Counted from the stretch's first letter, positions 3,101 through 18,160 are shown. The stretch is 41,767 bases of DNA from Myxococcota bacterium (GCA_023150835.1 JAKLKB010000053.1:1-41767), one strand, 5' to 3'. A program made the numbers and translations. The notes: generated by a model from the letters alone, not told the origin.

Positions 3101-5462
3101 CGCCACTCACGCACAAGGCGACCCCCACTGGCAAGCGTGGACCTCTCTTCTCTTTGAACTCTGGAACCCCGAAGCCTCCCGCGATCGACAAATCGAAGAC
3201 GCCATGCGCTGGTACATCCACCTCTGCGCACAACGCGCTCCCGTCGCCCTCCTCCTTGATGACCTCTTCCTCCTTGACCTGCGCAGCCAACGCTTTCTCG
3301 ATGCACTCCTACGCGACCCCCCCCCCCGACTCTTTGTCCTGATCGCCGCTGCACCCGGCGAATTTGACAGCCTTTCCCTCTCTCTTCGACACTCCCCCAC
3401 CACGCTCGAAGTCCCTCCCTTCACCCCCGAAGAAAGCCGCGCACTCCTGCGCAACGCCTCCCTCGACTCCCCCCTCTCCCCTCGCCAACAAGAACAACTC
3501 CTCCTCGAAAGCGAAGGAAACCCCCGCATCCTCCTCTCCCTCCTCCAAAGCGTTCAGCGCCAATTCGACCAACGCGAAACCCTCTCCGATAACCTCCGCA
3601 TCCCCCAAACCGTCGAAGGCATCCTACTCAAACATCTCCAAGGACTCAGCAGCATCGCCCAAGATACCCTCCGAAAAGCCGCCATGATCGGCGATATCTT
3701 TTGGCAAGGAGCCATCGAAAGCCTCGAACGCATGAACCTCGCCGAAGGCTCTTGGGGACTCCAAGAAGGCATCGCCATCGCCCAACTCGACGACCGCTCT
3801 CACGTTCTCCTCGAACTCGTCGACAAAAAACTCATCCAAAAACAACTCCAGTCCTCCCTCCCCGGCGAAACCGAATTCCGCTTCCACCAAAAACTCCTCC
3901 GCCAAATGATGCTCCAACAAATCCCCCTCTCCATCCGACAACAAATGCACCGCCGCGTCGCCGAGTGGATGCAGCTCCAAGACCAAGATGGCCTCCTGAT
4001 CGAACCCATCGTCGCTCACCTCAAACAAGCCGACGCCCGCAACGAAGCCGCTCGCACTCTCTTTGAAGCCGCCAAAAAACAACGCAGCCTCGGCAAAAAA
4101 CAAGAAGCCCTCCGCCTCATGGGCGAAGCTCTCGAAGAACTCAGCACCCCCCAACGCGCCACCCGACTCCTCTGGCTCGATACCATGCTCCGCACCGCCC
4201 TTCAACTCGGCGATATCCACGCCACCGCACATCTCTCCCAGCTCGCCCTCCAACTCTCTTGGCGCTTCAACAACATCCGCTGGGCCGCACAAGCCTACCT
4301 CCACCTCGGCATCTGCGCTCGGATGCTCTACCAAACCAACCCCGCACGCGATCACCTCCTCAACGCACAAGCCCTCGCCGAACGACAACACGACGATGTC
4401 CTACGCATCGAATCTTGGCTCCAACTCGCCCTGCTCGCTCTCGACGATGGACAGCGCGATGAAGCCCATCGCTGTATGCAAGCCGTCGACGTCATCCTCG
4501 AATCCCCTCCACCTTTCCCTCCCCCCACTTCACCCCACTTCGTCCGCTCTCATCTCGCTCGCATCGATGGCCGATGGGCCGACGCCGATCGACACCTCCA
4601 ATCCGCTCGCTCCGACGCCAGACGCGAATCCTCCGGCTATCTCTACGCCCGCAACCTCCTCAAAGAAGCCGAACTCTACCTCCTCGCCGCCGACGACGAA
4701 GCCGCCCTCCGCCTCCTCGGCGAACCCACCGAAACCTTCCGACGACAAGAGTGTCTCCTCGATCTCACCCAAGCCCTCCTCCTCGCCTCCCAAGCCCTCC
4801 TCCAACAACGCAAAACCCAACAAGCCCACGAACGCCTCCTCGAAGCTTGGCAGGCCACCCAGATCACCGCCTTCGACGTCCACATCGGACAAGTCGCCGC
4901 CGCTCTCGCTGCCTCCCACACCCTCCAAAACCAAGCCGACGCTTCCATCCACTTTGCCCACATCACCGAACAAAAACTCCGCACAGGCTCCCCCGCCGAA
5001 CGCGCCCTCATGTACTTCTTTCTCGGCGAAGCCTGCGCCGGACTCCCCAAAAACCGACGCAATGAACTCCTCTCCCGCCTACCCCAACGACTCCCCGAAG
5101 GCGGTCTCAGCACCTTCCTCTTCCTCAAATCCGTCGAACTCTTCCAAAAAGCCAAAGACACTCCCCGCCACTGCAACGCTCTGCTTTCCCTCGGACGCGC
5201 TCTCCTCAACGACGGACACCTCGATATCGCCTACAACGTCCTCGAACGCGGCTCCCGCGAAGCCCATGACGCCGGACTCTCCCTCCTCTCCAAACGCTTT
5301 GAAAACCAAAAACGCCTCCTCTCCGATGACGTCCCCCCTCCTCCCGATCTCCATCGACCTTCCTCCGCAACCCTTGTCGTCCGTGTCGACCGACTCAAAC
5401 CCACCTCTGTCCCCCCTATCCCCGAACTCCCTCAACATCTTCAGAAAAAGAAACCTTCTTGA
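3..5462 (+). CDS. Large STAND/AAA_16-type NTPase with TPR-like C-terminus and long low-complexity N-terminus; 5'-partial (frame is open to the window edge)
   Basis: The ORF-track frame 210..5462 has no stop back to position 3 (ASPSFPPSQHTG...). Motifs: LPFLGR, Walker A-like GQSGSGRS (2910-2933), Walker B-like LLLDDLFLLD, SEGNP, FRFHQKLLR, then Ala/Leu-rich helical repeats. This matches the myxobacterial (kinase/cyclase)-AAA_16-TPR architecture. Confidence 0.8.
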   Translation, partial: ASPSFPPSQHTGTSPAYTSAQPTGASPSFPPSQHTGASPSFPPSQHTGASPTYSPSRSVSPVHQPDPTTVAPLDRDAWKKAVEQALAQRIEQRTREQGPPPPAPPPTAANTQSTTPENRTAGHLRLPTPANPNRSGETDEFSPKSTSSRTSPPPSTQQTQQTLPPPPTSRPTRTPSAAQPQTRSALHPPTSPPSTKVHRPEATEQIHITKLRQELRDGLLSPQETGVLEEVLDEDDGALSSPPTENSLPLLFSTSPRPSPLHQPAQTTETTRPSPLHQPAQTTETTRPSPLHQPAQTTETTRPSPLHQPAQTTETTRPSPLHQPAQTTETTRPSQAPPKPSPSQTSHSTQQKAHQPEESTDPSIQIQLPWEQIEADALDASLPPPTLQPQTPLSERSGLHEPSDAYEKLLEEAQFIDEYEQPTQLNRVSPSHTTTPLPFAPIDPSKPHPFAPSERGQSHPHPHTFEEEDLDSPTHHHEDALDLSEDNGSKPIAVPDEFDLSAVPDEFDLSAVPDEFDLSAVPDEFDLSAENTNTADHQEEQEKHADLDSVGTYSDDLAEDLATREIRRPLLPSTSPMHRSASSDPAHQDAQHAADLDLPTHPHDPDDPDDPASYLDPEDQYMDPDDGDDLLSLHRLEDDPALPEENTSGLDLHTLHSLMLDPHRDPSQALWAFFDGTHELEELGAPPEESSAPKRKKHANTYTPTASSYTTAPLSSATTTPPTDPEDAILQEIHPHDIPLVPSSGRDTTGPITHNSLEDVANYSALQLWVQLDVEIPRRGLSLPLSQQWMLLSDLSEQLADRIREHGLSLDEQRPDRLHAHSRQGLPCLLRTLQAARTIQDVVYAHPPLAQDARARARCVLTLLTDDTSENESRDTAQRLFQHAPVGQIWLDWSAQLLLKEHESLHEIALPDLEEPAYQLAWEPQTTAQTTDEKGDAKLPFLGRLDILRSLEQAWVHTQHGNVQIVSLVGQSGSGRSRILQQWRNLQQPTLLFWGRAEDCPQERSPSPYLQSLLQSHLHHLHLDGPQALYQSIATHAQGDPHWQAWTSLLFELWNPEASRDRQIEDAMRWYIHLCAQRAPVALLLDDLFLLDLRSQRFLDALLRDPPPRLFVLIAAAPGEFDSLSLSLRHSPTTLEVPPFTPEESRALLRNASLDSPLSPRQQEQLLLESEGNPRILLSLLQSVQRQFDQRETLSDNLRIPQTVEGILLKHLQGLSSIAQDTLRKAAMIGDIFWQGAIESLERMNLAEGSWGLQEGIAIAQLDDRSHVLLELVDKKLIQKQLQSSLPGETEFRFHQKLLRQMMLQQIPLSIRQQMHRRVAEWMQLQDQDGLLIEPIVAHLKQADARNEAARTLFEAAKKQRSLGKKQEALRLMGEALEELSTPQRATRLLWLDTMLRTALQLGDIHATAHLSQLALQLSWRFNNIRWAAQAYLHLGICARMLYQTNPARDHLLNAQALAERQHDDVLRIESWLQLALLALDDGQRDEAHRCMQAVDVILESPPPFPPPTSPHFVRSHLARIDGRWADADRHLQSARSDARRESSGYLYARNLLKEAELYLLAADDEAALRLLGEPTETFRRQECLLDLTQALLLASQALLQQRKTQQAHERLLEAWQATQITAFDVHIGQVAAALAASHTLQNQADASIHFAHITEQKLRTGSPAERALMYFFLGEACAGLPKNRRNELLSRLPQRLPEGGLSTFLFLKSVELFQKAKDTPRHCNALLSLGRALLNDGHLDIAYNVLERGSREAHDAGLSLLSKRFENQKRLLSDDVPPPPDLHRPSSATLVVRVDRLKPTSVPPIPELPQHLQKKKPS
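771..1004 (+). repeat. 45-bp in-frame tandem repeat x5 (RPSPLHQPAQTTETT)
   Basis: Near-perfect copies seen directly in DNA and protein. Confidence 0.95.
1479..1589 (+). repeat. 27-bp in-frame tandem repeat x4 (AVPDEFDLS)
   Basis: Perfect copies of GCAGTTCCCGACGAATTCGATCTCTCC. Confidence 0.95.
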
Positions 5463-5646
5463 GCTCTCTCAAATAGAAACTGCGTCACCCCTCTCTCTTT
5501 TCTTCTTGTGCCTCCCCCTCTTTCCGCGCTAAAACCATGCCTCAACTCTTCTCCGCCCACCACCGCACGTCATTCATCCCCAGCGGGCGTAACCCAATGG
5601 CCCACCCCACCGCTCTTTTCGGGCCTTGCCGCAGAAAGGAACCCCC

Positions 5647-7515
5647 ATGCACATGGCTTGCCCAAACCAACGAACGTCCCCGATCCAACACGCCGATCGA
5701 ATCCCACGCCCCTTCGCCTCCTCCCTCTCCCCAAGTTCTCGCCCCTTCACACCCTCTGTTCGCCCAAGTTCCCGCCCCTTCACACCCTCTGTTCGCCCAA
5801 GTTTGATCGCCCTCTTCCTGCTGCTGATCGCCTCCGCACTCTTTGTTCTCGCTTGCGATCCCACCCCACCCACCGAAACCACCACCGAAACCACCACCGA
5901 AACCACCACCGAGATCTCCGCTGAATCCACCCCTGACGCACAACCCGACAACACCACAGGCCCCGACAACACCACAGGCCCCGACAACACCACAGGCCCC
6001 GACAGCACAACCGAATCCACTCTCCCCGAGACCACTCCATCCGAAGCGCTGCCCGAAGAATCCGGCCCCATCGATGTTTCCGAGATCACTCCCGAAACCA
6101 CTCTCCCCGAAACCACTCTCCCCGAAACCACCCTCCCCGAAACCACGCCCGAAACCACTCCGCTCCAACAGATCGCCTTGCAAGCACGCGCTCTCGCCCA
6201 ACAGACGGGCAACTTGCTGGTCTCCAACGGCATCCCATTTGCTTCGGGGCAACTCACCTCGATCTCAGGACTCACCCTCAAAAGCGGCAACCAAGAGATC
6301 GCTCTCTTCGCCAAGATCCTCGCCCGCTGGCAAGACCAATCCATCCGTGCGATCCTGCTTCAATTCCAACGGCCTTCCACCCAATTCCCCGCCACACTCA
6401 CGCTCGAACTCAATGGCTCCCCCCAAATCGCCCGACGCGCAGAAACACCCATCACATGGACGCTTCCACAAGCCATCGCATTTCCCGATAAGACCGCTCT
6501 TTGTGACTCCATGATCGGCGGCCCTTTGATCCCGCACAACACCAACCCCACCTTCCAAGCCTACGACACCAACCAGACGACCTATTACAACCAACTCAAA
6601 GGCAACACCGAATGGGGCAATGATGCTCGCCTTGATGGCTATTACTCGACCGCGCTCACATGGTACTTGCTGTTTTTGCGCACAGGAGACTCCGAGATCT
6701 TTTCGTGGGCGCGCCGCGAAGCCGTCCACTACCGCGACGATCAGATCATCCAAAGCGGCCCCAACATCGGTCGGATGAACGGACGCACCGAGCCTCGCTA
6801 TCTTTATCTGCGTGCAATGGAACTGGACTACCTGCTCACAGGCGATCCCAAAACCCTCCAAGTCTCCGAGATGATGGCCGAATATCTTTACTCGCTCCAC
6901 CCAACCGACTGGTATCACTACAAAAAAACCGACCGACGCTTTTGGACCGAACGCCGCGCTGGATTCGCTCTTCTCGGCCTCTTGGTCTATGGCCGATTCA
7001 GCGGCAAAACCAAATACACCGACCGCGCCAAAGAAATCCTCACCAAGATCCTCGCCACCCAAGCCGAATGGCCAAACGGTGGCTGGATTCATGGGTTGTA
7101 TTATCACGACTCTGCCGAATGTGCCGACCAAAACGCCTTCGGCGGCTCGCCCTTTATGACGGGACTTCTCTACGAAGGCTTGCTCGCTGCCCATCACTGG
7201 CTCCAAGATCCCCGCATCCTCCCCGCCATCCGCCAATCCACCGAGTGGCTCTGGACCCAAGGCTGGCGACAAACCGGCTTCCTTTATCTGATCGGTTGCG
7301 GAAATAGCTATACCGACGCCTCCCCCGACCTCAACCTCTTGCTCTCTCACGGCTTCGCTTTCCTCTATTGGGCCGACGGCAAAAAACCCACCGACCTCCA
7401 ACGCGCACAAAGCGTCTTCCAAGAAGGCGTTAAAAACGCCTACCTCAAAGCCCGAAAACAATACAACCAAAACTACCGCTCCAGCGGCGCAACCCTGTAT
7501 TACCTCACCAAGTGA
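5647..7515 (+). CDS. Lipoprotein with Thr/Pro/Glu-rich linker, PcRGLX/YetA-like N-terminal barrel and alpha/alpha-toroid (putative polysaccharide lyase or glycosidase)
   Basis: RBS GAAAGGAA before ATG 5647 (ORF track starts at 5626). Hydrophobic stretch plus lipobox FVLA-C (Cys at 5854). TTTE, PDNTTG and PETTL repeats. SNGIPFASGQL...LARWQDQSIRAILLQF resembles the YetA/PcRGLX N-domain. Helical repeats YLRTGD and YLLTGD. Confidence 0.6.
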   Translation: MHMACPNQRTSPIQHADRIPRPFASSLSPSSRPFTPSVRPSSRPFTPSVRPSLIALFLLLIASALFVLACDPTPPTETTTETTTETTTEISAESTPDAQPDNTTGPDNTTGPDNTTGPDSTTESTLPETTPSEALPEESGPIDVSEITPETTLPETTLPETTLPETTPETTPLQQIALQARALAQQTGNLLVSNGIPFASGQLTSISGLTLKSGNQEIALFAKILARWQDQSIRAILLQFQRPSTQFPATLTLELNGSPQIARRAETPITWTLPQAIAFPDKTALCDSMIGGPLIPHNTNPTFQAYDTNQTTYYNQLKGNTEWGNDARLDGYYSTALTWYLLFLRTGDSEIFSWARREAVHYRDDQIIQSGPNIGRMNGRTEPRYLYLRAMELDYLLTGDPKTLQVSEMMAEYLYSLHPTDWYHYKKTDRRFWTERRAGFALLGLLVYGRFSGKTKYTDRAKEILTKILATQAEWPNGGWIHGLYYHDSAECADQNAFGGSPFMTGLLYEGLLAAHHWLQDPRILPAIRQSTEWLWTQGWRQTGFLYLIGCGNSYTDASPDLNLLLSHGFAFLYWADGKKPTDLQRAQSVFQEGVKNAYLKARKQYNQNYRSSGATLYYLTK

Positions 7516-8169: not shown

Positions 8170-8453
8170 CAACTCCTATTTACAGAGAGCTACGCTCTTG
8201 CAGAAAGCTTCGCTTTTCTCCCCCCTCTCCCCGCAGATGAGGGGGAGAAAAAACACCGCCATTCTTCGAGGTTTCCGCCTTGAGTTTGCGCCCCTAGTGC
8301 CCTCCGCTGTGCTGTGTCTTCTTTTTTCTGGAGAACTTGACAATCTCGCGGTCCTACGGTCATCTTGCGCGAGCGCCGTTTGAGCGTTTCCTGCCCACAG
8401 GCCGAAACACCACCGTTGATGCGCCCCGTCGCCCAAACACGGAAGACACCCGT

Positions 8454-10661
8454 ATGTTGTACTATTGCGATGACGAATCCCTCCTTTGGTCCGATGCTTT
8501 CGGCATCAGTCGCCTTGCCTCTTCGCGGATCAAAACCCTCCCCCAAGGCAGCGCTCACCCGATGTCCACCCTATCACTCGATCAGCGCGCAACCACCGCG
8601 ATGTTGTACGATGCCGCCCGCGAAGAAGCCTGCTTCTACAGCATCCCTGACCTCGAACGAACGAAACGCCTTACGAACCTCCGCCGATGCCTCGAACTTT
8701 CCTATCCCACCGAACGCACCGCGATCTTTCTTCATCCCCAAGGCAACGCCCTGATCGTCTGGCAAGATGCACCCTACAACGAAGACGGATTGATGGGCCT
8801 TTTGGCCTACAACGACGAAACCGATCAAGAAGCTTTCTATCCGCTCGATTTCTCCGCCATCCCCAGCGCGCCCGACACGACTGTCCCCTTGCACCTCGGC
8901 CCCACCGCCTCCCCGGACCTCTTGCAACAAGCTCCGCTTTGCCCGCCCTTTGCCATCGCCCAAGATGGTCGATTCATCGCCTATTCTCAGCGCGAACACC
9001 TCTTGTTTGGCGGTTTTTGGGCGACGGCTGGCGCTCCCCCCACCTTGCTTTGGAAACTCTCCTTGACCGTCCATCCACGCTCGCACGCACAGATCTTCAC
9101 AAACACCTCAGGAAACCTCTTCGCGCTCTATGACCAAAGCCGTTATCTGCTTCATCTTTTGCACGTCGATCACTACGGCACACACCGATCTCGCCAGCTT
9201 CCTGCACGCGGTCTTCCCGCCTTTTACGAACGCACCTTGGCCTACCAGCGCGATGTCGAAACCATCGTCCGCGTTGACCTCGACACCCAAGAGATCGAAG
9301 AATCCACCCTTCCTGCCGCCCTTGTCGGCGATGGACGTCTGTTTCTGGGCCCCGATCGCCTGTTCTTTTCTCCCCAACACGGCGAATCTCTCTACGAGAT
9401 CGGCCCCCAAAAACTGCGCATACGCCGCCTCCCCGAAACCGACAAACCTCTCCGCGATCTGTTTTTTTCCAAGATCCGCGAATACGAAACCATCGGACGC
9501 AGCGCTAGAATGGTCGTTTCTCTCGATCACTTCCAACGCAAAGAACGCAAAGACGGGCCTGCTGTCGTTTACAACCTCACCGCTTTTGGCGAAAGCGACC
9601 GACTCTTGAGCGCTTTTGCCTTCTATCACTTCCAACACAACGACCTCTCCGCCTTGGCCCAGACTCACGGCGTAATCGTCGAAGAAGGCAGCCAACAATG
9701 CTACGATAGCACCCCACATCCGCGCCTCGACACTCTCGAACAGACCTTCTCGCTCGAAGAACAGCACGAAGTTCTCCGCTTTGCCCAACGCCACGCCTTT
9801 GACCTGATCGCCTTCGCACCTTTTTTACGCGATCTCCATGATGCCCGACACGGCTACACTTCGATCGGCGCACATATCTCCTTACATCCATCGGGACTTC
9901 CGCTTTTCTCTCACCACGATCTTCTCACATGGTTCGATCTCTTTCACCAGATCGCTCTCTCCCAAACCGCCTCCCTATCGGCCTTTGAACGCTTTGCCAC
10001 CTCGCTTCTGCTCTCCTTTGAACAAGCCCTGCCCACCTTCCAAAAGGTCCTCGATCACGCCGAATCCTCCCGCATATCCGCAACCTTTGGACTGCTGCTT
10101 CGCCTCGCCTTCTCCGCATGGCAAGCCGATCTTTCCACGCTTCTGATCGCTCTCCTCCACTCCCGTCACTCCGCTCTTTGCGCCACTTGCTTGTTTGATA
10201 TCGCGGTCATGGCCTTGCGTTGCTCCCGCCTCTTCCCCGAAACCACCCAACCCCTCCACAAAGCTTTCCTCCAATGGCTCGAACACACCACCGATACCGA
10301 CGCCCGATGGAATGTCGAACAAGTCATCCAAGCCCCCGATATCCTCAAAAAACGACTCAAACTCCCCAAAGAACCCAAGCCCACCACAAAACCCCCATCA
10401 CCCAAACCCGCCACAAAAATCCCCTCTTCTAATCCCACCACAAAACCCCCATCGCCCAAACCCGCCACAAAAATCCCCTCTTCTAAGCCCGCCACAAAAA
10501 TCCCCTCTTCTAAGCCCACCACAAAAACCACCTCACCGAACCCCACGACAACAACACAAAAGCCCGCTCATTCGGAAAAAACCACACCCTCCAAACCCAC
10601 CGACAAACCCACCCCGCACAAACCCACCCCAAAGGCCCCTCCCCCTCAAGAAAAAGGTTGA
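8454..10661 (+). CDS. Hypothetical protein (beta-rich N-half, helical C-half, Lys/Pro/Thr-rich repeat tail)
   Basis: Long ORF with host-like codon bias. ATG 8454 is the likeliest start (ORF track starts at 8337). No family motif recognised. Confidence 0.7.
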   Translation: MLYYCDDESLLWSDAFGISRLASSRIKTLPQGSAHPMSTLSLDQRATTAMLYDAAREEACFYSIPDLERTKRLTNLRRCLELSYPTERTAIFLHPQGNALIVWQDAPYNEDGLMGLLAYNDETDQEAFYPLDFSAIPSAPDTTVPLHLGPTASPDLLQQAPLCPPFAIAQDGRFIAYSQREHLLFGGFWATAGAPPTLLWKLSLTVHPRSHAQIFTNTSGNLFALYDQSRYLLHLLHVDHYGTHRSRQLPARGLPAFYERTLAYQRDVETIVRVDLDTQEIEESTLPAALVGDGRLFLGPDRLFFSPQHGESLYEIGPQKLRIRRLPETDKPLRDLFFSKIREYETIGRSARMVVSLDHFQRKERKDGPAVVYNLTAFGESDRLLSAFAFYHFQHNDLSALAQTHGVIVEEGSQQCYDSTPHPRLDTLEQTFSLEEQHEVLRFAQRHAFDLIAFAPFLRDLHDARHGYTSIGAHISLHPSGLPLFSHHDLLTWFDLFHQIALSQTASLSAFERFATSLLLSFEQALPTFQKVLDHAESSRISATFGLLLRLAFSAWQADLSTLLIALLHSRHSALCATCLFDIAVMALRCSRLFPETTQPLHKAFLQWLEHTTDTDARWNVEQVIQAPDILKKRLKLPKEPKPTTKPPSPKPATKIPSSNPTTKPPSPKPATKIPSSKPATKIPSSKPTTKTTSPNPTTTTQKPAHSEKTTPSKPTDKPTPHKPTPKAPPPQEKG

Positions 10662-10734: not shown

Positions 10735-11316
10735 TTGCGCAAGTGGTTCGGCAAGATGTTACTCAAACTCGTGGGATGGAAGGCCGAAGGCACTCTCCCC
10801 GGTAAAAAGGTGATCCTGATCACCGCTCCTCATACAACCAACTGGGACTTTTTCTATATGATCCTGATGGCGATGTATTTTGATATCCAGATCTCTTGGA
10901 TGGGAAAACACACGCTGTTTCGCTTCCCTTACGGCTGGTTTATGCGCTGGATGGGGGGGATTCCCATCGACCGCCGCGCCAACCACAACATCGTCACCGC
11001 GACCGCCGAACAATTCAAAAAAACCGACGCTCTGATCCTCGGCATCCCCGCCGAAGGCACCCGAAAATATGTCGATTATTGGAAATCTGGCTTTTACTTC
11101 ATCGCCAAAGAAGCCCATGTCCCGATCGTCCTTGGATTCCTCGATTACGAAAAAAAGATCGGTGGCTTCGGCCCTTCTCTCATCCCCTCGGATGATCTTC
11201 GCGCTGACATGGACAAGATCCGCGCCTTTTACAAAGATATCAAAGGCAAATATCCCGAAAAGTTCGGACGCATCCGCCTCCGCGCCGAAGATGAAACCGA
11301 AACCAAATCTCAATAA
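10735..11316 (+). CDS. Lysophospholipid/1-acylglycerol-3-phosphate acyltransferase (PlsC family)
   Basis: HxxxxD motif (APHTTNWD), IPIDR, PAEGTRK and VPIV blocks. TTG start at 10735 after AAAGGG. The upstream part of ORF-track 10195 overlaps the previous gene and is spurious. Confidence 0.9.
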   Translation: MRKWFGKMLLKLVGWKAEGTLPGKKVILITAPHTTNWDFFYMILMAMYFDIQISWMGKHTLFRFPYGWFMRWMGGIPIDRRANHNIVTATAEQFKKTDALILGIPAEGTRKYVDYWKSGFYFIAKEAHVPIVLGFLDYEKKIGGFGPSLIPSDDLRADMDKIRAFYKDIKGKYPEKFGRIRLRAEDETETKSQ

Positions 11317-11325
11317 AATCCGATT

Positions 11326-12549
11326 CTAAGGAACGACAACATTATCTTGCGAAGCCTTGTTCCCGCTTCCCCCGCAAACATGCCCATAATCCGCCTCGGA
11401 CGAGCTATAACGCCCACCCCCGACCGTCGACCAACTCTTCATCGCTTTGTTGTCCCTGCCTCCTAAGATCACAGCAAAAGCGCCGTACGTCTGATTGGCT
11501 TCACCCCCGCAAACCGTCGAAAGAGCCGCGCTGGTCAGATTGTTTTCTCCGCCCAAGATGGTGGAGCGGTCCCCGACACTCTTGTTGCTTCGGCCTCCGC
11601 TCACATGGCTCATCGCCCCTCCGGCTTGATTTTGCCACCCGCCCCCGATATGGCTGCTCGGGCCTGACGCGATGTTCTCCGAACCACCCGAGACCGAAGC
11701 ATAATCCCCGTTGGCGATGTTGCTGCTGCCTCCGCTTACATGCCCGTAGTCTTTCGTCACTTTGTTTCGCTCCCCGCCGCTGATCTGCCCGTGCAGCCCG
11801 GGCGCCTCGATGGCATTTTTGAAACCACCGCTAATGTTTGCGTAATTTGCACGCGCTTCGTTGTACCTCCCTCCGCTTACACTCGAAGAACTACCGAGCG
11901 CCTTGTTCTCCGCTCCACCGCTCACATGCGCAACCGCCCCCTGTACAACGTTTTCTGTCCCGCCGCTCACACTTGCTGCCTCACCTTCGATCAGATGGAA
12001 GCTACCCCCTGACGCGCTCGCGTACGGCCCGACCAAACGACTGCCTTTTCCAGCCAACAAACCTCCATAACTCTCGTAACTCTGGCCGTCCCCAACCACC
12101 ACATTGTGCGATCCTTGCCCACCCACAGGCACAGGAACCCCATTTTTTTGAACGACTTCATTGTACCCAACAATCAGGTTTCCAAGACCATTTAATTCAG
12201 AAGATTTCCCTGTGCCGTTGACGATCTGTAGACTGGCTCCAGACAACGTCACCAGCTTCTTCTTTTCATCAACGCGCAAGTGTTGAAGAAAAGAGCGCAA
12301 CACCGCGATCTCTTGCTCTTTTAACCCATCCGATGGAGGTGTCGGACGATTGAACAAGCAGCGATACAACGCAGCATTTTCGCAATATCCCTTGCCTTCG
12401 GCATCTTTGACGCAAGCATGGCCGCGCACACAGTCCGAATCCGCAGCGCAGCGCGCACAAGGCGGCGGCTCCTCCACTCCACAGCCCCCCACGACACGAA
12501 TGAGGCCCAACACCAAAACCCACCACAGCACACCACGCTCCCACCGCAT
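11326..12549 (-). CDS. Lipoprotein with Cys-rich module and Gly-rich SGG beta-roll repeats (adhesin-head-like)
   Basis: AGGAG before ATG 12549. Hydrophobic stretch plus lipobox VVGG-C, a CxxCxxDxDCxxGxxC module, an NGLGNLIVGYNE block, then many ~14-aa xSVSGGxxNxAxG repeats. Confidence 0.75.
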   Translation of the reverse strand: MRWERGVLWWVLVLGLIRVVGGCGVEEPPPCARCAADSDCVRGHACVKDAEGKGYCENAALYRCLFNRPTPPSDGLKEQEIAVLRSFLQHLRVDEKKKLVTLSGASLQIVNGTGKSSELNGLGNLIVGYNEVVQKNGVPVPVGGQGSHNVVVGDGQSYESYGGLLAGKGSRLVGPYASASGGSFHLIEGEAASVSGGTENVVQGAVAHVSGGAENKALGSSSSVSGGRYNEARANYANISGGFKNAIEAPGLHGQISGGERNKVTKDYGHVSGGSSNIANGDYASVSGGSENIASGPSSHIGGGWQNQAGGAMSHVSGGRSNKSVGDRSTILGGENNLTSAALSTVCGGEANQTYGAFAVILGGRDNKAMKSWSTVGGGRYSSSEADYGHVCGGSGNKASQDNVVVP

Positions 12550-12738
12550 CCTTCCAAACTCCTTTGATGGCCTCGGCTCTCTCGCTTCGTTTGACCTCAC
12601 CAACCCGATCTCCGTATCCTCTGCGCCGCCCCTATCAGATGGGACTTACGCAGTTGCCAAAAAAAGCCGTGTTCGCGAACGCCCGAGCGACAGAGTCGTT
12701 GTTTTGAAAGACCTGTGATCTGTTCGCCAAATACGGGG

Positions 12739-14049
12739 TCAAGGGAGCCGCGCTCTATGGCGGGGCGTGGGGTGGAACCCCACTTGACTCGATATCGACG
12801 GAGTGTTCGCTTTCGTCAGGGAAACGGTGTCCTTTTGGGCGATAGCCGCGATCCCCAAACCAAGCGCAACCGCAGCGATCCCTCCCGAAACAACATACAG
12901 CGCACGACCGATATCTCTTGCCTGCAAGGCTTGTTCATAAGAGGCCCGCCATGTGGTCTCTTTGTAAGCGCTCTGCTTGGCGTCCTGCAACGTCGCCTGA
13001 CTCATCCCCCCCAGCAGGACTCCCCCCGCCAACGCCACAACAGCCACCCCCACCGTCACCCCCGAAGCCACCCACAGACCGCGTTTTAGACCACTCGCTT
13101 CTTGTGGAACCGTAGGCCGCTGTACCACCGAACGGATCGGCCTTTTGGCAGGAAGCCGCACAGCCACAGCACGCCGAAAAAGCTCTGACCAATCGCTCTG
13201 TCGGCGCTCTTGGCTTTCCGACAAAGACAGCCGTATCCATCTCTGCACCGCCGATCCGTCAGCAGCTTTCAGATGAACACGATAACATCCCGCAGGAAGC
13301 CACAATCGATCTTTCTTGACAAAAGACTCTTTTCGGACAAAAGCATAACCACAAGTCTGTAAATCGGCGAGCGGTGTTTTTTTGGATCGACACTGCCACA
13401 ACGCAGCGGGATAACGGGCCGCGCATCGAACTGTGGCTCCTTCGATCCGCACGTCCGCCCTTTCGATACGCACATCCGCCCTTTCGATACGCACATCCGC
13501 CCTTTCGATACGCACATCCGCCCTTTCGATACGCACATCCGCTCCCCTCGACGACGCCGCTTTTGTGGATCGCAACAACGGCCAAGGCAGATCACGGCTT
13601 GCATCCCGCAGCCGCTGGACTTCGGTGATGATCTGCTCTGATTCGAGGGCCGAACGGGCTTTGGGATCACGGCGGCGCAAAAAAGAGTCGTAAGCGAGAT
13701 AACTTGCGATCGCTTGTTGGCGCAACAGCAGCGCAGAAGAAGGGCATACCTTGCTCTGTGCTGCTTGGAAGGCCGCAAGCGCCTGAACTTTTGCAAGATT
13801 TTTGAGCTGATAGGGATCGTTGGTCGCCCGATACAACGCGCAAAAACAACGCTGCGCTCGCTGCCATCGCCCTTTTTGCTTGTGCTCCACACAAGCCGCA
13901 AAGCTGACAGCAGGCTGCGATGTCTGTGCCGAAGCAGCGCTCCAAACCCCGCTGCTTCGGCCTCCACAAAAAGCCACCAGCCCAAAAACGGCCCACCCCA
14001 CCCCACCCCGGCCCAACCTCCGAAAAAACCACAAAAACAGCGACCACAC
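12739..14049 (-). CDS. Exported TPR + PEGA-like protein with two C-terminal hydrophobic helices
   Basis: AAGGAG before GTG 14049 (ORF track starts at 14103). Signal peptide ending ASA-Q, TPR-like helices (GRWQRAQRCF...LKNLAKV...AIASYLAY), PEGA-like LWLPAGCYRVHL, and two Gly/Ala/Val-rich helices. This is the typical myxobacterial TPR-PEGA layout. Confidence 0.65.
   Translation of the reverse strand: MWSLFLWFFRRLGRGGVGWAVFGLVAFCGGRSSGVWSAASAQTSQPAVSFAACVEHKQKGRWQRAQRCFCALYRATNDPYQLKNLAKVQALAAFQAAQSKVCPSSALLLRQQAIASYLAYDSFLRRRDPKARSALESEQIITEVQRLRDASRDLPWPLLRSTKAASSRGADVRIERADVRIERADVRIERADVRIERADVRIEGATVRCAARYPAALWQCRSKKTPLADLQTCGYAFVRKESFVKKDRLWLPAGCYRVHLKAADGSAVQRWIRLSLSESQERRQSDWSELFRRAVAVRLPAKRPIRSVVQRPTVPQEASGLKRGLWVASGVTVGVAVVALAGGVLLGGMSQATLQDAKQSAYKETTWRASYEQALQARDIGRALYVVSGGIAAVALGLGIAAIAQKDTVSLTKANTPSISSQVGFHPTPRHRARLP
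13441..13541 (-). repeat. 21-bp in-frame tandem repeat, about 5 copies (ADVRIER)
   Basis: TTCGATACGCACATCCGCCCT repeats read directly. Confidence 0.9.
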
Positions 14050-14066
14050 GCACAGCTCCTTGGGTA

Positions 14067-15503
14067 TTACGGCCTTTTCTTTTGCAACGCCGACGCAAGA
14101 CAATAACTTGGGCCGCTCACCATCTCCTCATGCTTCTGCAAGGGACGCAGCCGCAACACGCTTGTACCAAGAGAAACACTCAAGGTACAGATCTCATAAG
14201 CCATCTTGGCTGTGCGATGAACCACCACCACTTCGATCAAGGGCCGATCATTGGGGATCTTGATCTGTGCGGAACCCACCGAAACTCCTGCGGGTACTCC
14301 GAGATCATGCGTACTCAGATAACCGACAGGCTGGATCTCTACCGTCCAAAAAGCCGCAGCATCGGCCTTTGCGTTAGGCGACGTGCGTTTCTTTCGTTTG
14401 TGTTTTTTCCAACGCGACCGATACTTCGGTGCTTTGAAAGAAACAGATCGAGGCGAGGACAAGTCTCGGACGAGACGAGGCTTGGAAGAAATATTGCGTG
14501 TAGAAGCAGGCTGCGGATCTGCCGAAGTGTTGCGTACAGAAGTAGGCTGCGGATCTGCCGAAGTGTTGCGGGCTGGGGCAGGTTGCGGATCTGCCGAAGT
14601 GTTGCGTGCAGGGGTGGGTTGCGGATGAGGAGAAGTGTTGCGTGCAGGGGTGGGTTGCGGATGAGGAGAAGTGCTGCGTGTGGAAGTAGGCGGTAGATCA
14701 GCGGAAGCTGAAATAGGGGAAGGAGACGAGCGGGAGTCGTGTGTGTGGAGAGAAGATGCCACCCGAGGAGGCGAGGAAGAGCGATACCACCCCACGCCCA
14801 CGGAAAGCAAAAGCAACGCGACGAAAGCAACGATCTGTAGGCGTGGTTTCGGCTCAAAGATGCGTTCGTTGCGCAAGGAAGAGACCAAAGCAGGCAGTTG
14901 GTTGATCTTCACAAACAAGATCAGCGGATGGTCGCCAACAGCGGGCGACTTGGAAGGTTCAAAGAATTCAACTTGTGCAACCGCCCCCAACGGACTTTCG
15001 AGGATCTTCTTGACCTTTTGCAACGAGACCGCAGGCAAGAGAAAAACTCCGGGTCTTCCGCTGCCTTGGTCGGTTTGGCAACGCTCCAAAAAAGCACGTA
15101 GTTTTTGGGGGAGAAAGTCAACCTCTTGGATGTGCGCGTGCTCTCCGTGCGGAGAGAGAGCCGCTGAAGCCCATAGCTGCTCGGTATTCAGCCAACGCGC
15201 ACGAAAGGGCTTTTTGGCGTGTGCCATCGCAAGGAAGGTCGCAAGATTGGCGGAAGCCCCGTTCCATCGGCGCGGATCGTCCACCCGTACAGATTGTGAA
15301 CTGCACGGATGCGCGATCCAACAAAGAGGCCCCGGCCAATGTTCGTGCGGAAACAACAACGCCCACGAATTGAGCGCATTGTCGACCGCAAAGCGATCGT
15401 GAGGAAGAGCTTCCGATACATCTTGTTCCCCGATGAAGACCTCGGCACATCCGAGGGATTCGCCGTCGCGTTGAGGTGAGACTACGGGGAAGAAGATCTG
15501 CAT
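14067..15503 (-). CDS. Membrane-anchored Lon-type (peptidase S16) protease-domain protein with Pro-rich linker and C-terminal beta domain
   Basis: NGASANLATFLA resembles Lon DGPSAG(I/L)A (Ser84). LWASAAL..G...IQEVDFLPQK resembles AMTGEI...G.V.PIGG..EK (Lys134). FLLP resembles Lon VIIP. One TM helix (IVAFVALLLLSVGVGWY), 39-bp repeats (PQPTPARNTS), basic tract and a beta-rich C-domain. No AAA+ module. Confidence 0.65.
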   Translation of the reverse strand: MQIFFPVVSPQRDGESLGCAEVFIGEQDVSEALPHDRFAVDNALNSWALLFPHEHWPGPLCWIAHPCSSQSVRVDDPRRWNGASANLATFLAMAHAKKPFRARWLNTEQLWASAALSPHGEHAHIQEVDFLPQKLRAFLERCQTDQGSGRPGVFLLPAVSLQKVKKILESPLGAVAQVEFFEPSKSPAVGDHPLILFVKINQLPALVSSLRNERIFEPKPRLQIVAFVALLLLSVGVGWYRSSSPPRVASSLHTHDSRSSPSPISASADLPPTSTRSTSPHPQPTPARNTSPHPQPTPARNTSADPQPAPARNTSADPQPTSVRNTSADPQPASTRNISSKPRLVRDLSSPRSVSFKAPKYRSRWKKHKRKKRTSPNAKADAAAFWTVEIQPVGYLSTHDLGVPAGVSVGSAQIKIPNDRPLIEVVVVHRTAKMAYEICTLSVSLGTSVLRLRPLQKHEEMVSGPSYCLASALQKKRP

Positions 15504-15508
15504 CCGCT

Positions 15509-16072
15509 TTAACCGGGGTAGACGACAAATTGAAAAGGCGAGGCAGCAGGATCAAAACCAAGTTCTTCTTGGGTCAAAAACAGATCGAACCCTTTTCGCT
15601 CGCCAGCAAGTTTGGTTAAGCAAGCGTATTCTTGGTTTTCATGAAGAAAAATAGCCAGCCACCAACCTTGTTCGTGGAAGGTGTCGGATTGCCACGAAAC
15701 CCGCAAAGATCCGATGGGATCGTCGTCTTCGCGGATCAGTCGCATCGAAAGTTGCACACAACCCAACCCACGCCGTCGAAAATCAAAGGTGTGCTGTGTT
15801 TCTTCAAACGCAGCATGGGCGAATTGAAGCTGCCACTGTTGAACCCAGTTCGGGAACACCGCAAACTCACGAAAAGCCTGTGCTTTGAGGCGAGCGATCT
15901 CTAGCGTAAACCGACGTTCCGCCTCAGGTCGCAACAAGCCCAGATTTCGGGCCTGTTCAAACACCGCGATGGCGGCTTCTTGGGCTTCTGCCGGAGATAT
16001 CTTCTCTTCCGAGTCCTTTTTGTCGCGCTCACGAAATCTCATCACCAGCGCGCTCCTCCTGTTCGTGTTCAT
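15509..16072 (-). CDS. Hypothetical two-domain protein (helical N-domain, AHAA linker, beta-sandwich C-domain); putative regulator partner
   Basis: Overlaps the upstream HTH gene and stops 5 nt before the protease gene. An alternative start is ATG 16042 with GAGGAG. Confidence 0.65.
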   Translation of the reverse strand: MNTNRRSALVMRFRERDKKDSEEKISPAEAQEAAIAVFEQARNLGLLRPEAERRFTLEIARLKAQAFREFAVFPNWVQQWQLQFAHAAFEETQHTFDFRRRGLGCVQLSMRLIREDDDPIGSLRVSWQSDTFHEQGWWLAIFLHENQEYACLTKLAGERKGFDLFLTQEELGFDPAASPFQFVVYPG

Positions 16073-16427
16073 CCACCGGCGTCAGTACAAAACGCATACG
16101 AAACCCCAAGATGTAGCAATAGGTCGCCATCAACTTGCGGTTGCAAGGGATCCCATTCTCCAAGCGCCAGAGAAAAGTTGTACTGAACGCCTCTTGGATC
16201 TCATGGGGCCGATCAGCCAATTCCATCAAAAAGTGGCTGAGTTCCGAAAGCTCACGGTGCGTCCAACCGACATCAGGGCGTTGGGACCAACAAACCATGC
16301 CTTCGCGTTCAACCAAAGAGCGGATCCGAGGATGTAGATCTCGCAGATTGTGACGGACCTCCGCCAACAACCGCCCAAGCAATACGTACGGGTCCACGCG
16401 CTTACCTCTCTCTATACCACGCGCCAT
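16029..16427 (-). CDS. XRE/Cro-C1 family helix-turn-helix protein with an insertion
   Basis: GWTHRELSELS...FSTTFLWRLENG..CNRKLMATYCYILG matches the XRE pattern GLTQ.ELA...S...ISRLENG..PS...L..IA.ALG. Likely start ATG 16427 (ORF track starts at 16547). Confidence 0.65.
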   Translation of the reverse strand: MARGIERGKRVDPYVLLGRLLAEVRHNLRDLHPRIRSLVEREGMVCWSQRPDVGWTHRELSELSHFLMELADRPHEIQEAFSTTFLWRLENGIPCNRKLMATYCYILGFRMRFVLTPVDEHEQEERAGDEIS

Positions 16428-16795
16428 CCTTGGCGCTGTTTCACTTTCTGAAAAACACCTCAGCCTATTTACCGCTGCGCTGCGATCGGTTCGTTGTTTC
16501 CGCGATATCGAAGATTCCTCTCGCGCCCCAAAAAAACCACCACACACAACAAAGGACGATCAACCCACAAACAACAACAAAGCAAACCATCTGCCCAACG
16601 CGCTGTCAAGGCGACCCCACGCCCCCCAGAACCTAACGAACGACCAGCGCTTCTCGCAAGTCGCTTGGTGAAACTCCCTTCGGTCGTTTTGCGCCGTTAT
16701 TTGCTTTTGTCAAGGCATCCCGCCCTGCCCAAACGCGACCTCTTCGGCCTACTCGACGGGCGCTCTCCATAAAATACATGGATTTGCAAACCGCA

Positions 16796-18160
16796 TTAGA
16801 TGGTCATGGAAAAGATCTGCGTCTCGGGTTGTTTGCGCCACAGACGCAGATCAAAGGCCATGCAGATATTGCGCACAAACGCCCGTCCTTCGGTCGTCAC
16901 ACGCAATCCATCGGGCAAGATCTCGACCAGTCCATCGGCGGCCAGTTCCTGCAAACGCTCCAGCACTTGTGGTAGATCGACAAAGCGCTGCGAAGCCTCC
17001 GACCAACGGGTCTCCCAGTGACACATCACATCCAAGATATGCTGACGGATCAGCAGATCTTCGTTGTCCAACAAATGCCCCCGAAACACGGGAAGTTCCC
17101 CAGCCTCTAGCCGCTCTCGATACGCTTCGAGCGTTTTCTCGTTTTGTGCAAAAGCCCCCCACGCATCGCCGATCGCGGACACCCCCAACCCCACAAGCAA
17201 CGTCGTTTTGGAAGATGTGTAGCCCATAAAGTTCCGATGCAGGCGACCTTCTCGCGCAGCCTTTGCCATATCGTCCGAAGGTAGGGCAAAGTGATCCATC
17301 CCGATCTCGTTGTAGCCCAAAGATTCCAACCTCTGCTTGCCATGCTCGTACAAAGCCCGCTTTTGCGCATCTTTGGGCAGATCTTCTTCCGAATATCCCC
17401 GCTGCCCAACGCCTTTTACCCAAGGCACGTGCGCATAACTGTAAAAGGCGATCCGATCAGGACGCAATCTCCCCGTCTGTTCGATGGTTGCCGTCATGCT
17501 CTCCAACGTCTGAAACGGCAAACCATACACCAAGTCGTGACTCACCGAAGTATACCCGATATCCCGCGCCCACAGCGTCACGCGCTCCACATGCTCACGC
17601 GGTTGGATACGGTTGATCGTCTTTTGCACCTTCTCATCGTAATCTTGCACACCAAAGCTCACACGCCGAAATCCCAGATCATACAGCGTTTGCAGATGCT
17701 CTCGCGTGGTGTTGTTTGGATGCCCTTCCACGCTAAAGTGAACTTCTTCGCAAAGCTCCGATCCTGCAAAGATCCCTTCAAGCATCCAACGCAGATGGGC
17801 AGGAGAAAAAAACGTCGGCGTCCCCCCGCCCAAGTGGATCTCTCGGATACGCGGCCTTCGTGGAAACAAAGACCGATACATCTCCCACTCCCGCAAGATC
17901 AATTGTAGATAAGGCTCTTCCACATCATGATTGCGGGTAATCCGACGATTGCAGCCGCAAAAAGTACACAAACTCTCGCAAAAAGGCAGATGGATATAAA
18001 GGCTGATCCCTTCGTTCTCGTTGCTCTGCTCAAACGCTTGCCACACCGCTGCTTTCCAGCGCGGTATTTGGAAGCTCTCCGTGTCCCAATACGGAACGGT
18101 CGGATAACTCGTATAACGCGGCCCTGCTACATTGTACTTCTGGATCAATTCGCTCTGCAT
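16796..18160 (-). CDS. hemN: Oxygen-independent coproporphyrinogen III oxidase (radical SAM)
   Basis: GPRYTSYPT, YIHLPFC, CxxxCxxC (CESLCTFC), GGGTPT, IGMDHFALP, LHRNFMGY, RNICMAFD; 454 aa. Confidence 0.97.
   Translation of the reverse strand: MQSELIQKYNVAGPRYTSYPTVPYWDTESFQIPRWKAAVWQAFEQSNENEGISLYIHLPFCESLCTFCGCNRRITRNHDVEEPYLQLILREWEMYRSLFPRRPRIREIHLGGGTPTFFSPAHLRWMLEGIFAGSELCEEVHFSVEGHPNNTTREHLQTLYDLGFRRVSFGVQDYDEKVQKTINRIQPREHVERVTLWARDIGYTSVSHDLVYGLPFQTLESMTATIEQTGRLRPDRIAFYSYAHVPWVKGVGQRGYSEEDLPKDAQKRALYEHGKQRLESLGYNEIGMDHFALPSDDMAKAAREGRLHRNFMGYTSSKTTLLVGLGVSAIGDAWGAFAQNEKTLEAYRERLEAGELPVFRGHLLDNEDLLIRQHILDVMCHWETRWSEASQRFVDLPQVLERLQELAADGLVEILPDGLRVTTEGRAFVRNICMAFDLRLWRKQPETQIFSMTI

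Follow-up and report, generated by a model that had tools for sequence, protein, structure and literature searches.

In ImmA-ImmR and IrrE-DdrO, a dedicated protease is encoded beside the XRE-type repressor that it inactivates, and both ImmA and IrrE are soluble COG2856 metalloproteases that have neither a third partner nor a membrane anchor. Sensing and proteolysis are brought together on one chain in BlaR1, which is described as joining a sensor to a protease domain that faces the cytoplasm and takes part in BlaI derepression (PMC9834060). In the CalpL-CalpT-CalpS system, CalpL is reported to be activated through oligomerisation and to cleave CalpT of the CalpT-CalpS pair, CalpT, an anti-sigma factor, itself having MazF-like and DUF2080 domains (10.1101/2024.05.08.593097).

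Here we describe a rare gene trio found in an uncultured sludge bacterium of the Myxococcota, within a window that comprises the whole analysed stretch of 41,767 nucleotides (GCA_023150835.1 JAKLKB010000053.1:1-41767), and propose that this trio probably turns a signal into altered gene expression through protein cleavage. Similarly to CalpL-CalpT-CalpS, the trio appears to place the genes of a small partner protein and of a transcription factor beside that of a sensor-fused Lon-type Ser-Lys protease of the ATP-independent kind. The parts nevertheless differ. CalpL carries a SAVED domain, which Pfam did not detect in the protease gene of our window (g3), whose input part would instead be a membrane helix followed by an outer domain; in a related protein from another phylum this part is a STAND NTPase. 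Differently from CalpS, an ECF-like sigma factor, the regulator of the window (g1) is XRE-like, although an ECF sigma factor is found at a paralogous locus. The Calp proteins belong to type III CRISPR; no cas family was detected among the 15 window ORFs scanned. As far as the cited account of BlaR1 goes, BlaR1/MecR1 with BlaI/MecI follow the same logic, with an outward sensor and a cytoplasmic-facing protease on one chain that controls a repressor. However, BlaR1 is a multi-pass zinc metalloprotease, while g3 encodes a single-pass protein with an N-terminal Ser-Lys Lon-type domain and is accompanied by an extra partner; the two show no sequence relationship, and Pfam found no M56 zinc metalloprotease domain in g3. 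A membrane-anchored Lon-type protease accompanied by a partner likewise sets this locus apart from ImmA-ImmR and IrrE-DdrO.

Layout and Conservation of the Locus

Five ORFs, all co-oriented on the minus strand (11326-16427/16547), make up the locus: g1 (16029-16427/16547), g2 (15509-16072), g3 (14067-15503), g4 (12739-14103) and g5 (11326-12603). The initial annotation of this DNA, made from the sequence alone, had described five such genes with the first four tightly packed, and this description holds: the overlap of g1 and g2 amounts to 14 nt with the conserved Met of g2 (16042) as its start and to 44 nt with a g2 start at 16072, 5 nt separate g2 from g3, and the gap between g3 and g4 measures 17 nt, given a g4 start at GTG 14049. 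In RNA libraries of two studies, contigs run across the g2/g3 junction (X15 record 6, X16 record 13, X19 record 23), which is weak support because DNA carry-over is possible. Comparison with the same-genus orthologue gave dN/dS values of 0.39 for g1, 0.16 for g2 and 0.21 for g3, indicating that these three genes are under purifying selection. None of the g1-g5 proteins had a meaningful family match in Pfam or NCBIfam, and the genes next to them in the window have housekeeping functions (an acyltransferase, a HemN-like radical SAM protein, an SDR and CobW).

Gene neighbourhoods indicate that the conserved unit is one of three genes, namely the regulator, a partner of 177/187 amino acids and the Lon-like protein, and not of five. 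In six genomes of the phylum, all five strong partner matches have a Lon-like gene immediately downstream, and the HTH matches of the g1 family, five in number, all fall within these loci. In addition, a 3.4-Mb genome from another phylum (G273) contains a single partner match (E 4.1e-6), which adjoins its one Lon-like gene. The regulator slot is occupied by an ECF sigma factor at the paralogous locus G004:C96 (TIGR02937, E 1.2e-10; 41.2 bits, cut-off 42.9), and in G273 by a sigma-like protein with weak sigma-70 matches (E 0.004). This replacement of the HTH protein by a sigma factor at one paralogous locus, and perhaps at a second, makes the analogy to CalpL-CalpT-CalpS, already drawn in the initial annotation, an apt one. 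Neither partner nor regulator stands beside the Lon-like paralogue G004:C13. Gene neighbourhoods were visible for 2 of the 17 representative matches outside the close orthologue group. Judged on these sequences, the genes for the HTH protein, the partner and the protease are found together much more often than expected by chance, so that the co-occurrence predicted earlier is borne out for the three genes within the phylum and, for the partner and the Lon-like gene, also in G273.

The Lon-Type Domain of g3

The 478-residue g3 protein runs from a Lon-type domain through a transmembrane helix and a Pro-rich linker to a small Cys-bearing domain. By profile comparison and predicted fold, residues 1-215 (14859..15503, minus strand) are a Lon-type (S16) domain, ATP-independent and with a putative Ser-Lys dyad (S84/K134), which is predicted to be located in the cytoplasm. 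Both dyad residues are unchanged in all 21 family members aligned. A search of the PDB with the family profile matched residues 579-656 of MtaLonC (E 4.5e-4 and 1.7e-3), aligning S84 with S582 and K134 with K625, with a Ser-Lys spacing of 50 residues in g3 versus 43 in MtaLonC. We take S582 and K625 to be the catalytic residues of MtaLonC, and S582A appears in the title of the PDB entry. The AlphaFold2 model of the N-domain reaches block pLDDT values of mostly 82-98, and all 33 Foldseek PDB matches listed for it are Lon-type domains (probability 0.60-1.00), with a TM to target of ~0.5 for isolated P-domains; the E-values are modest (0.013-0.16, none at or below 0.001 among the matches listed). 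CalpL is absent among the Foldseek matches listed. The curated Lon_C (Pfam) and NCBIfam Lon models gave no match to g3 at E up to 1, and no single measure gives more than a modest similarity to Lon. Together, the profile match, the predicted fold and the invariant residues bear out the S16-like N-domain with S84 and K134 that the initial annotation had proposed, including its expectation that this part would fold as S16.

MtaLonC and the Lon proteolytic domains (MEROPS S16) thus provide the best profile and fold match to g3, but g3 differs from them in having no AAA+ or AAA-like module such as LonA/LonB/LonC holoenzymes carry on their chain (Pfam finds no AAA+ or ATPase module on the chain), in the missing Lon_C match and in that its Lon-type domain precedes a membrane helix. 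As Lon-type domains are reported often to degrade with low sequence specificity (10.1101/2024.05.08.593097), g3 might be thought to serve local quality control or protein processing at the membrane, without a signalling role and with neighbours that are merely co-regulated. We consider this very improbable, given the missing AAA+ module, the strict linkage of the protease to partner and HTH families of its own, and the variable sensor-type C-terminal domains described in the next section; a role in signalling is the reading that we pursue here. The g3-family profile also finds LonC-type motifs in four unrelated genomes.

Membrane Helix, Linker and Outer Domain

A single transmembrane helix is predicted at residues 222-240 of g3 (14784..14840, minus strand; hydropathy peak 2.07), and one such helix directly follows the Lon-like domain in 19 of 21 family members. 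Counting Lys and Arg on either side of the helix in these 19 members, the N-side is the richer in 17, equal in one and poorer in one. The charge pattern gives no clear topology for the WD40 forms, in which P0012 has 0 basic residues on the N-side versus 5 on the C-side and L011 has 2 on each; in these forms a basic coiled coil comes after the helix. The g3 protein has no signal peptide, residues 2-9 forming the first strand of the fold modelled by AlphaFold2. Residues 241-478 (14067..14783, minus strand), predicted to lie outside the cytoplasm, comprise the Pro-rich repeat linker, in which a repeat search found 5.4 copies of a 36-nt tandem unit (14487-14680, minus strand), and a C-terminal domain of ~100 residues with two conserved Cys. 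The helix and Pro linker of the initial annotation are therefore both in place. Its beta C-domain was also modelled, but at low confidence only, as AlphaFold2 pLDDT is 50-73 for this domain and below 50 over residues 247-374. The motifs YEIC and YC are common to g3 and P0001-P0003, and their Cys also occur in P0004.

No known sensor was matched by the outer domain of g3 in the window. The C-terminal parts of its relatives correspond to SBP_bac_8, dCache_1 (below the Pfam cut-off), DUF5648 and WD40, and these sensor-type domains, placed beyond the membrane helix, fit the earlier idea of a receptor with a protease as its output. Two proteins depart from this scheme: in P0014 the Lon-like domain is followed by NB-ARC and TPR without a transmembrane helix, and in the Lon-like gene of G273 nSTAND1 and WD40 lie downstream of it. 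In both, the Lon-like domain holds the N-terminal effector position known from the STAND/NLR-like conflict systems that multicellular bacteria possess (nSTAND1 or NB-ARC with WD40 or TPR), whereas g3 itself has no NTPase. These architectures raise the possibility of a conflict or immunity system, in which a sensor would release a Lon-like death or alarm effector and the partner and regulator would serve as safeguard or alarm output. Partner and sigma-like genes do stand alongside the Lon-like gene in G273, and the closest worked-out analogue, CalpL-CalpT-CalpS, is reported to be antiviral (10.1101/2024.05.08.593097). However, PADLOC returned no meaningful match for any of the seven proteins tested, the window neighbours are housekeeping genes, the solute-binding and Cache-type domains of the membrane forms are of a kind usual in environmental sensing, and the main text of a 2020 survey of STAND/NLR-like systems mentions no Lon-type effector, the word 'Lon' being absent from it (PMC7159879). 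An immune function is rather unlikely in our estimation.

The Partner and the Regulator

The g2 partner (15509..16072, minus strand) has 187 residues when read from the first ATG and 177 from the conserved start M11 at 16042. It consists of a variable helical N-terminal part followed by a conserved beta-sandwich of ~105 residues: in alignment A6 of the family, 22 of 23 invariant columns sit at residue 74 or later, the N-half varying with the type of regulator and the C-half being conserved. The AlphaFold2 model (pLDDT 75.4) shows helices plus a beta-sandwich, which agrees with the two-domain partner initially annotated. The Foldseek matches of g2, to MATH/TRAF-like and generic sandwich folds, are all weak (E 0.0076 or worse), and the MATH-like ones (TM 0.25-0.37) are not significant in this model-based comparison. 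No recognisable anti-sigma or CalpT-like domain was found by Pfam or among the Foldseek matches listed. Neither its sequence, in which Pfam found no MazF-like or DUF2080 domain, nor its predicted fold, with no CalpT entry among the Foldseek matches listed, resembles CalpT.

The g1 product is a small regulator with a divergent XRE-like HTH (16029..16427, minus strand), in which an insertion of ~15 residues separates helices 2 and 3. Translation probably starts at GTG 16397 rather than at ATG 16427, since in the orthologue a stop codon lies between the two positions and the GTG has a Shine-Dalgarno-like GAGAGG in front of it. The XRE-HTH label given to g1 at the outset is not confirmed as it stands: hhalign against eight HTH_3 domains of its own genome gave a probability of 86% (E 4.7e-6, 56 columns), and the Atlas HTH clusters, a language-model lead only, point the same way (score 0.91, 137-145 shared features), but Pfam yields no match at E up to 1.

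Which protein is cut is the point on which two readings of the trio diverge. The protease could cleave the HTH regulator, or the sigma factor, directly, with the partner acting as an adaptor or as a brake on the protease and not as its substrate. This reading draws on the same trio of genes and the same protease fold, the best, if weak, Foldseek matches of the g2 beta-sandwich are MATH/TRAF peptide-binding adaptor domains, and BlaR1 is described as a sensor-protease that acts in BlaI derepression (PMC9834060). Against this, the MATH-like matches fall short of significance, and the regulator class varies between XRE-like proteins and ECF sigma factors while the C-domain of the partner stays constant, a pattern more readily understood if it is the partner that the protease recognises. 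We therefore regard direct cleavage of the regulator as improbable, although the least so of the alternatives considered, and prefer the partner as the substrate.

Proposed Mechanism

The reading of the trio to which we give an even chance is that of a regulated-proteolysis module, in which a sensor-fused membrane protease cleaves a partner that controls the regulator. Here g3 would be a single-pass membrane protein with its ATP-independent Lon-type protease N-terminal and cytoplasmic and its C-terminal input domain facing outwards. The beta-sandwich of g2 would dock on the protease, while the variable helical N-part of g2 would hold the transcription factor, XRE-like g1 in the window and the ECF sigma factor at the paralogous locus. 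Once a signal reaches the outer domain of g3, cleavage of g2 would be switched on, probably via clustering of the protease domains, and the cut would free or alter g1 and so change transcription.

On a broader reading, somewhat less assured than the module itself, the Lon-like domain would define an undescribed class of receptor-proteases and serve as a portable output, attached through one transmembrane helix to outward sensors of solute-binding, Cache-like or WD40 type, or else to cytoplasmic STAND NTPases, and always combined with one private beta-sandwich anti-regulator, whose cleavage would release the XRE-type repressor or ECF sigma factor bound to it. If this is true, CalpL-CalpT-CalpS would be one CRISPR-linked case of a broader and older signalling principle.

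The Envelope Neighbours g4 and g5

The g4 protein (12739..14049, minus strand, from GTG 14049) contains, in order, an N-terminal hydrophobic signal-like stretch, a helical part, a RADVRIE heptad repeat (13441-13542, minus strand; 4.9 copies of 21 nt by repeat search), a beta region and a C-terminal hydrophobic helix pair. The initial annotation had called it an exported TPR-PEGA protein, a label that found no confirmation: Pfam finds neither TPR nor PEGA (PF08308) at E up to 1, none of the 55 six-frame PEGA matches of the genome falls in g4, and hhalign against the genome's own PEGA domains gives a probability of 2%, leaving a likeness at the level of motifs only (GADVRIEG, LPAGCYRV). The sole full-length match to g4 is its same-genus orthologue, other matches covering just the C-terminal hydrophobic part.

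For g5 (11326..12549, minus strand), the likely start is ATG 12549, inside the ORF that begins at 12603. The g5 product is a putative lipoprotein, and its translation contains a lipoprotein-type Cys after a hydrophobic stretch (VVGGC), a Cys-rich stretch and UspA1-head-type repeats, the latter matching the UspA1 head 3pr7 in a phmmer search of the PDB (E 6.5e-19), in keeping with the repeat lipoprotein first proposed. We rejected g5 as a trimeric autotransporter adhesin: it has the head repeats, but Pfam found no C-terminal membrane anchor of the YadA type, and the N-terminus is of the lipoprotein type.

The initial annotation had also treated all five genes as one operon, in which the lipoprotein and the g4 protein would sense the cue outside and, across the envelope, bring the protease into clusters. 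In its favour, synteny of the whole five-gene set extends to G001, a genome of the same genus, where the g4-g5 gap is short, and the g4 and g5 products resemble envelope proteins. Yet g4 and g5 accompany the protease in G001 only and are missing from the four paralogous loci and from G273, so that just three of the five genes are conserved beyond the genus, and the TPR and PEGA domains assigned to the sensor pair were not detected. Moreover, in relatives the sensor domain is part of the protease chain itself, which makes a separate sensor unnecessary. We judge the five-gene arrangement to be a decidedly unlikely sensor; most likely, g4 and g5 are lineage-specific envelope neighbours outside the conserved core. 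The wide g4-g5 gap in the window consists of a ~145-nt dispersed repeat, and it is the absence of this repeat in the same-genus orthologue that makes the corresponding gap in G001 short.

Gene calls and representation in RNA libraries

The five genes at 11326-16427 lie on a contig of a 7.56-Mb draft genome (93% complete) from a phylum represented in the genome set used by six species genomes, which are large (5-10.8 Mb). The initial annotation of these genes as co-oriented was borne out by the ORFs and their coordinates, all being on the minus strand with the spacing claimed: g1 (16029-16427), a putative XRE-like regulator; g2 (15509-16072), its partner; g3 (14067-15503), a predicted Lon-like membrane protease of 478 residues; g4 (12739 to 14049 or 14103); and g5 (11326-12603), a putative repeat lipoprotein. 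Searches of Pfam and NCBIfam gave no meaningful match for any of the five, and every domain label thus needed testing by other means. With dN/dS values of 0.39 (g1), 0.16 (g2) and 0.21 (N-domain of g3) against the orthologues in G001, a genome of the same genus, g1, g2 and g3 are genuine genes under constraint. The conserved start of g2 is M11, preceded by AGGAGG. For g1, an in-frame stop is found in the G001 orthologue (locus L014, contig C174, about 5228-5249) seven codons after the earlier-assumed ATG, which makes GTG 16397 the likelier start and suggests that both genomes use the downstream GTG.

Rfam searches (E up to 0.1) returned no match in 11000-17200, and since promoter-like (2 versus 2.3 in shuffles) and terminator-like sites (7 versus 8.2) are not in excess, they are uninformative on operon limits. 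Contigs identical to the locus occur in RNA libraries of activated sludge: one, 1386 nt long, covers 14644-16029, from within g3 up to the end of g1, and the g2/g3 junction is spanned by contigs from two studies. They show the presence of the locus in RNA libraries, short of proof of a transcript, and the want of cover over parts of g4 and g5 carries, by the method's caveat, no evidential weight.

The Lon-type domain of g3

A HMMER search of 1.84 billion representative proteins with residues 1-235 of g3 found 17 relatives at E up to 0.001 (a word-index search found three). Six columns, P6, G18, F38, G82, S84 and K134, are invariant among 21 family members. The profile of all 21 sequences matches residues 579-656 of the Lon-like protease MtaLonC in the PDB (E 4.5e-4), aligning S84 on S582 and K134 on K625; with the 15 members that have no WD40 repeats, MtaLonC is again found (E 1.7e-3) and accounts for all top five matches. 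The AlphaFold2 model has block pLDDT values mostly of 82-98 across residues 1-210, and Foldseek against the PDB gave Lon-type proteolytic domains in 33 of the 33 rows listed (Lon, LonC, LONP1, PIM1, the ComM Lon domain and BrxL), with probabilities of 0.60-1.00 and E-values of 0.013-0.16, none of these rows reaching 0.001. A protein-language-model search added one weak lead, a cluster with Lon_C in 19% of its members; against the PDB, phmmer with g3, g1 and g4 gave nothing useful and the profile of alignment A7 gave nothing. Pfam detected no ATPase module in g3. Over 401 genomes, the family profile matched 5 of the 395 outside the host phylum, four matches being ORFs of 807-840 residues whose matched segments have a LonC-type motif and the fifth a STAND protein. 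Because these individually modest lines of evidence agree, the S16-type fold and Ser-Lys dyad (S84/K134), claimed from the start, can be regarded as established, and protease activity is predicted. The family has escaped annotation because it is absent from Pfam and NCBIfam and very rare.

The first strand of the protease fold begins at residue 2 of the model, so that g3 has no signal peptide. A single hydrophobic helix follows the protease domain in 19 of the 21 members (it is absent from the homologues P0014 and P0015), and Lys plus Arg are in excess on its N-side in 17 of these 19, equally frequent on both sides in L011 and fewer on the N-side in P0012; by the positive-inside rule, this distribution makes the protease domain cytoplasmic. 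Behind the helix, g3 has a Pro-rich linker with a 12-residue unit, encoded by a 36-nt tandem repeat of 5.4 copies (14487-14680); this linker is the least conserved part of g3 relative to G001. A domain of about 100 residues comes next, for which the model has low confidence. This C-domain has YEIC and YC motifs common to the homologues P0001-P0003, their Cys residues being found also in P0004. Elsewhere the helix is followed by SBP_bac_8 (P0005), by dCache_1 (P0019; E 1.9e-7, below Pfam's cut-off), by DUF5648 (P0007) or by WD40 propellers (P0012, P0016 and two paralogues in G004, another genome of the phylum), while P0014, which lacks the helix, carries NB-ARC and TPR after the Lon-like domain. 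In the genome G273, which belongs to another phylum, a 1126-aa nSTAND1-WD40 protein begins with this domain, its Ser and Lys retained. Given this variety of C-terminal domains, the Lon-like domain behaves as an output module, placed at the N-terminus of sensor proteins and portable between them. One 1242-aa protein of G004 (L071, C179, 3623-8154) combines a degenerate Lon-like domain, both dyad residues replaced, with a Ser/Thr kinase domain. It is possibly a pseudo-protease related to the module, and the start of its gene is overlapped by an HTH_26 (XRE-type) gene.

A partner and a regulator that travel with the protease

By tblastn and profile searches, partner and regulator accompany the protease. 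Six strong Lon-like loci are present in the six genomes of the phylum; the strong partner matches number five, each of them directly upstream of a different one of these loci. The g1-family matches, also five, are confined to four of those partner-bearing loci: one in the window, one on G001:C174, two on G000:C24 of the same genome as the window (one before the partner, one after the protease gene) and a fused double copy on G004:C10. At G004:C96 the gene upstream of the partner encodes a sigma factor of ECF type (TIGR02937, E 1.2e-10; 41.2 bits, the cut-off being 42.9). The Lon-like paralogue on G004:C13 stands without a partner or regulator gene next to it. In G273, the single partner match of the whole 3.4-Mb genome (E 4.1e-6) lies just upstream of its single Lon-like gene, in a row (L070, C3, 4044-8914) formed by a weak sigma-70-like gene (E 0.004), the partner homologue and the Lon-like-nSTAND1-WD40 gene; an OmpA/DUF4384 protein is encoded downstream. 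BLASTP detected no pairwise similarity between the two sigma-like proteins. Among database proteins, P0021 (a 58%-identical partner) and P0003 (a 59%-identical protease) have the same longest-contig value, 4908, as do the partner homologue P0023 and a member of the P0012 cluster (15587). A search for related loci with the closer alignment A5 found only 91%-identical loci, on one metagenome contig and the G001 contig, and the word-index search found only five partner relatives, which may reflect low sensitivity rather than true absence. The co-occurrence proposed for all five genes holds across the loci compared for g1, g2 and g3; g4 and g5 accompany the protease only in G001.

The initial reading of g1 as an XRE-HTH protein, for which Pfam and NCBIfam offer nothing, finds partial backing in its hhalign alignment with HTH_3 domains encoded in the same genome, which has a probability of 86% and shows an insertion of 15 residues separating helices 2 and 3; its nearest Atlas clusters are HTH regulators (0.91), a lead only. 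The g2 model (pLDDT 75.4) consists of two to three helices and an eight-strand sandwich. Of the 23 invariant columns in the g2 alignment, 22 fall at or after residue 74, and the N-half varies among loci, being longest in the sigma-linked paralogue. Since the only Foldseek matches were weak (SPOP/USP7 MATH domains and generic sandwiches, E 0.0076 or worse), g2 is not CalpT-like; neither Pfam nor Foldseek supported a CalpT-like or anti-sigma domain, and this candidate was rejected.

Putative mechanism and relation to known systems

The module is best read as one in which g3, a sensor-fused protease, would cleave g2 as a dedicated anti-regulator, g2 putatively connecting the protease to a transcription factor that can be exchanged. 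That g2 would be the substrate is proposed because its C-domain is constant across loci of differing regulator class; the main rival is that the protease cuts the regulator directly, g2 serving as an adaptor. A complex prediction for the g3 N-domain with g2, run without controls, scored 0.00 and gave no verdict either way. Our confidence in the anatomy of the module is high, and in its cleavage mechanism moderate. A role in a conflict system is also possible: the Lon-like domain occurs on STAND forms as well, but PADLOC gave no meaningful match for the seven proteins tested and the genes neighbouring the module in the window are housekeeping genes. The five-gene trans-envelope model first put forward is the least supported part.

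Bacterial trans-membrane signalling relies mostly on phosphorylation and on anti-sigma factors being cleaved in several steps. To date, sensor-protease logic is known from BlaR1, a metalloprotease, and from CRISPR-linked CalpL, which responds to a cytoplasmic nucleotide. By sequence and fold, the closest relative of the g3 N-domain is the Lon/LonC proteolytic domain; by logic, and as far as the portions of the literature consulted describe them, the closest systems are CalpL-CalpT-CalpS and BlaR1-BlaI. However, the module lacks both the features that define the former (SAVED and CalpT domains) and the metalloprotease that defines the latter, and so would work like both while being a member of neither. 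CalpT, in the part of the account consulted, consists of MazF-like and DUF2080 domains (10.1101/2024.05.08.593097). Literature searches found no Lon-type receptor or Lon/anti-sigma module outside CRISPR, and neither PMC7159879 nor PMC13581612 uses the word 'Lon' in its main text; in either case supplements might include such a domain. A single-chain sensor whose output is a Lon-type protease, combined with a dedicated anti-regulator, would add a further signalling route, and its interchangeable sensors, with XRE-like or sigma output, suggest uses as an orthogonal protease switch. It would also give a direct test of whether clustering alone is enough to activate stand-alone Lon domains.

The g4 and g5 genes and other features of the window

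The g5 product has an N-terminus of lipoprotein type and contains repeats with homology to the head of UspA1 (E 6.5e-19); Pfam detected no autotransporter anchor. For g4, which has a signal-like N-terminus and two C-terminal hydrophobic helices, the assignment as TPR-PEGA did not hold: neither domain could be shown by Pfam, six-frame PEGA matches or hhalign, and PEGA was rejected at the level of the tests run. Its C-terminal part resembles that of a 398-aa, PEGA-bearing protein on contig C152. Six-frame PEGA-domain matches number 55 in the whole genome. An in-frame 21-nt tandem repeat of 4.9 copies (13441-13542) encodes RADVRIE in g4; the G001 orthologue has fewer copies and the metatranscriptome contig X17 skips 63 nt, or three units, so that copy number varies between strains.

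The gap between g4 and g5 is widened by a dispersed element of about 145 nt (12640-12783), which is absent from the G001 orthologue and here encodes the last residues of g4. At least 40 copies (80-90% identity) were scored in the genome out of 763 first-look candidates, and Rfam gave no match. RNA-library contigs pile up on this element, with a depth of 63-79 versus under 20 elsewhere and many different flanks.

Elsewhere in the window, a 774-aa ORF at 8337-10661, without a Pfam family, ends in Pro/Thr/Lys-rich repeats (KPPSPKPATKIPSS-like) and overlaps, in another frame, the long upstream extension of an acyltransferase ORF, so that the start of one of the two is miscalled. In positions 1-6000, where a giant ORF of over 1750 residues lies on the plus strand, GC skew is very strong (-0.40 to -0.54); the ORF contains an AAA_16 (STAND-type) ATPase domain and extends beyond the start of the window.
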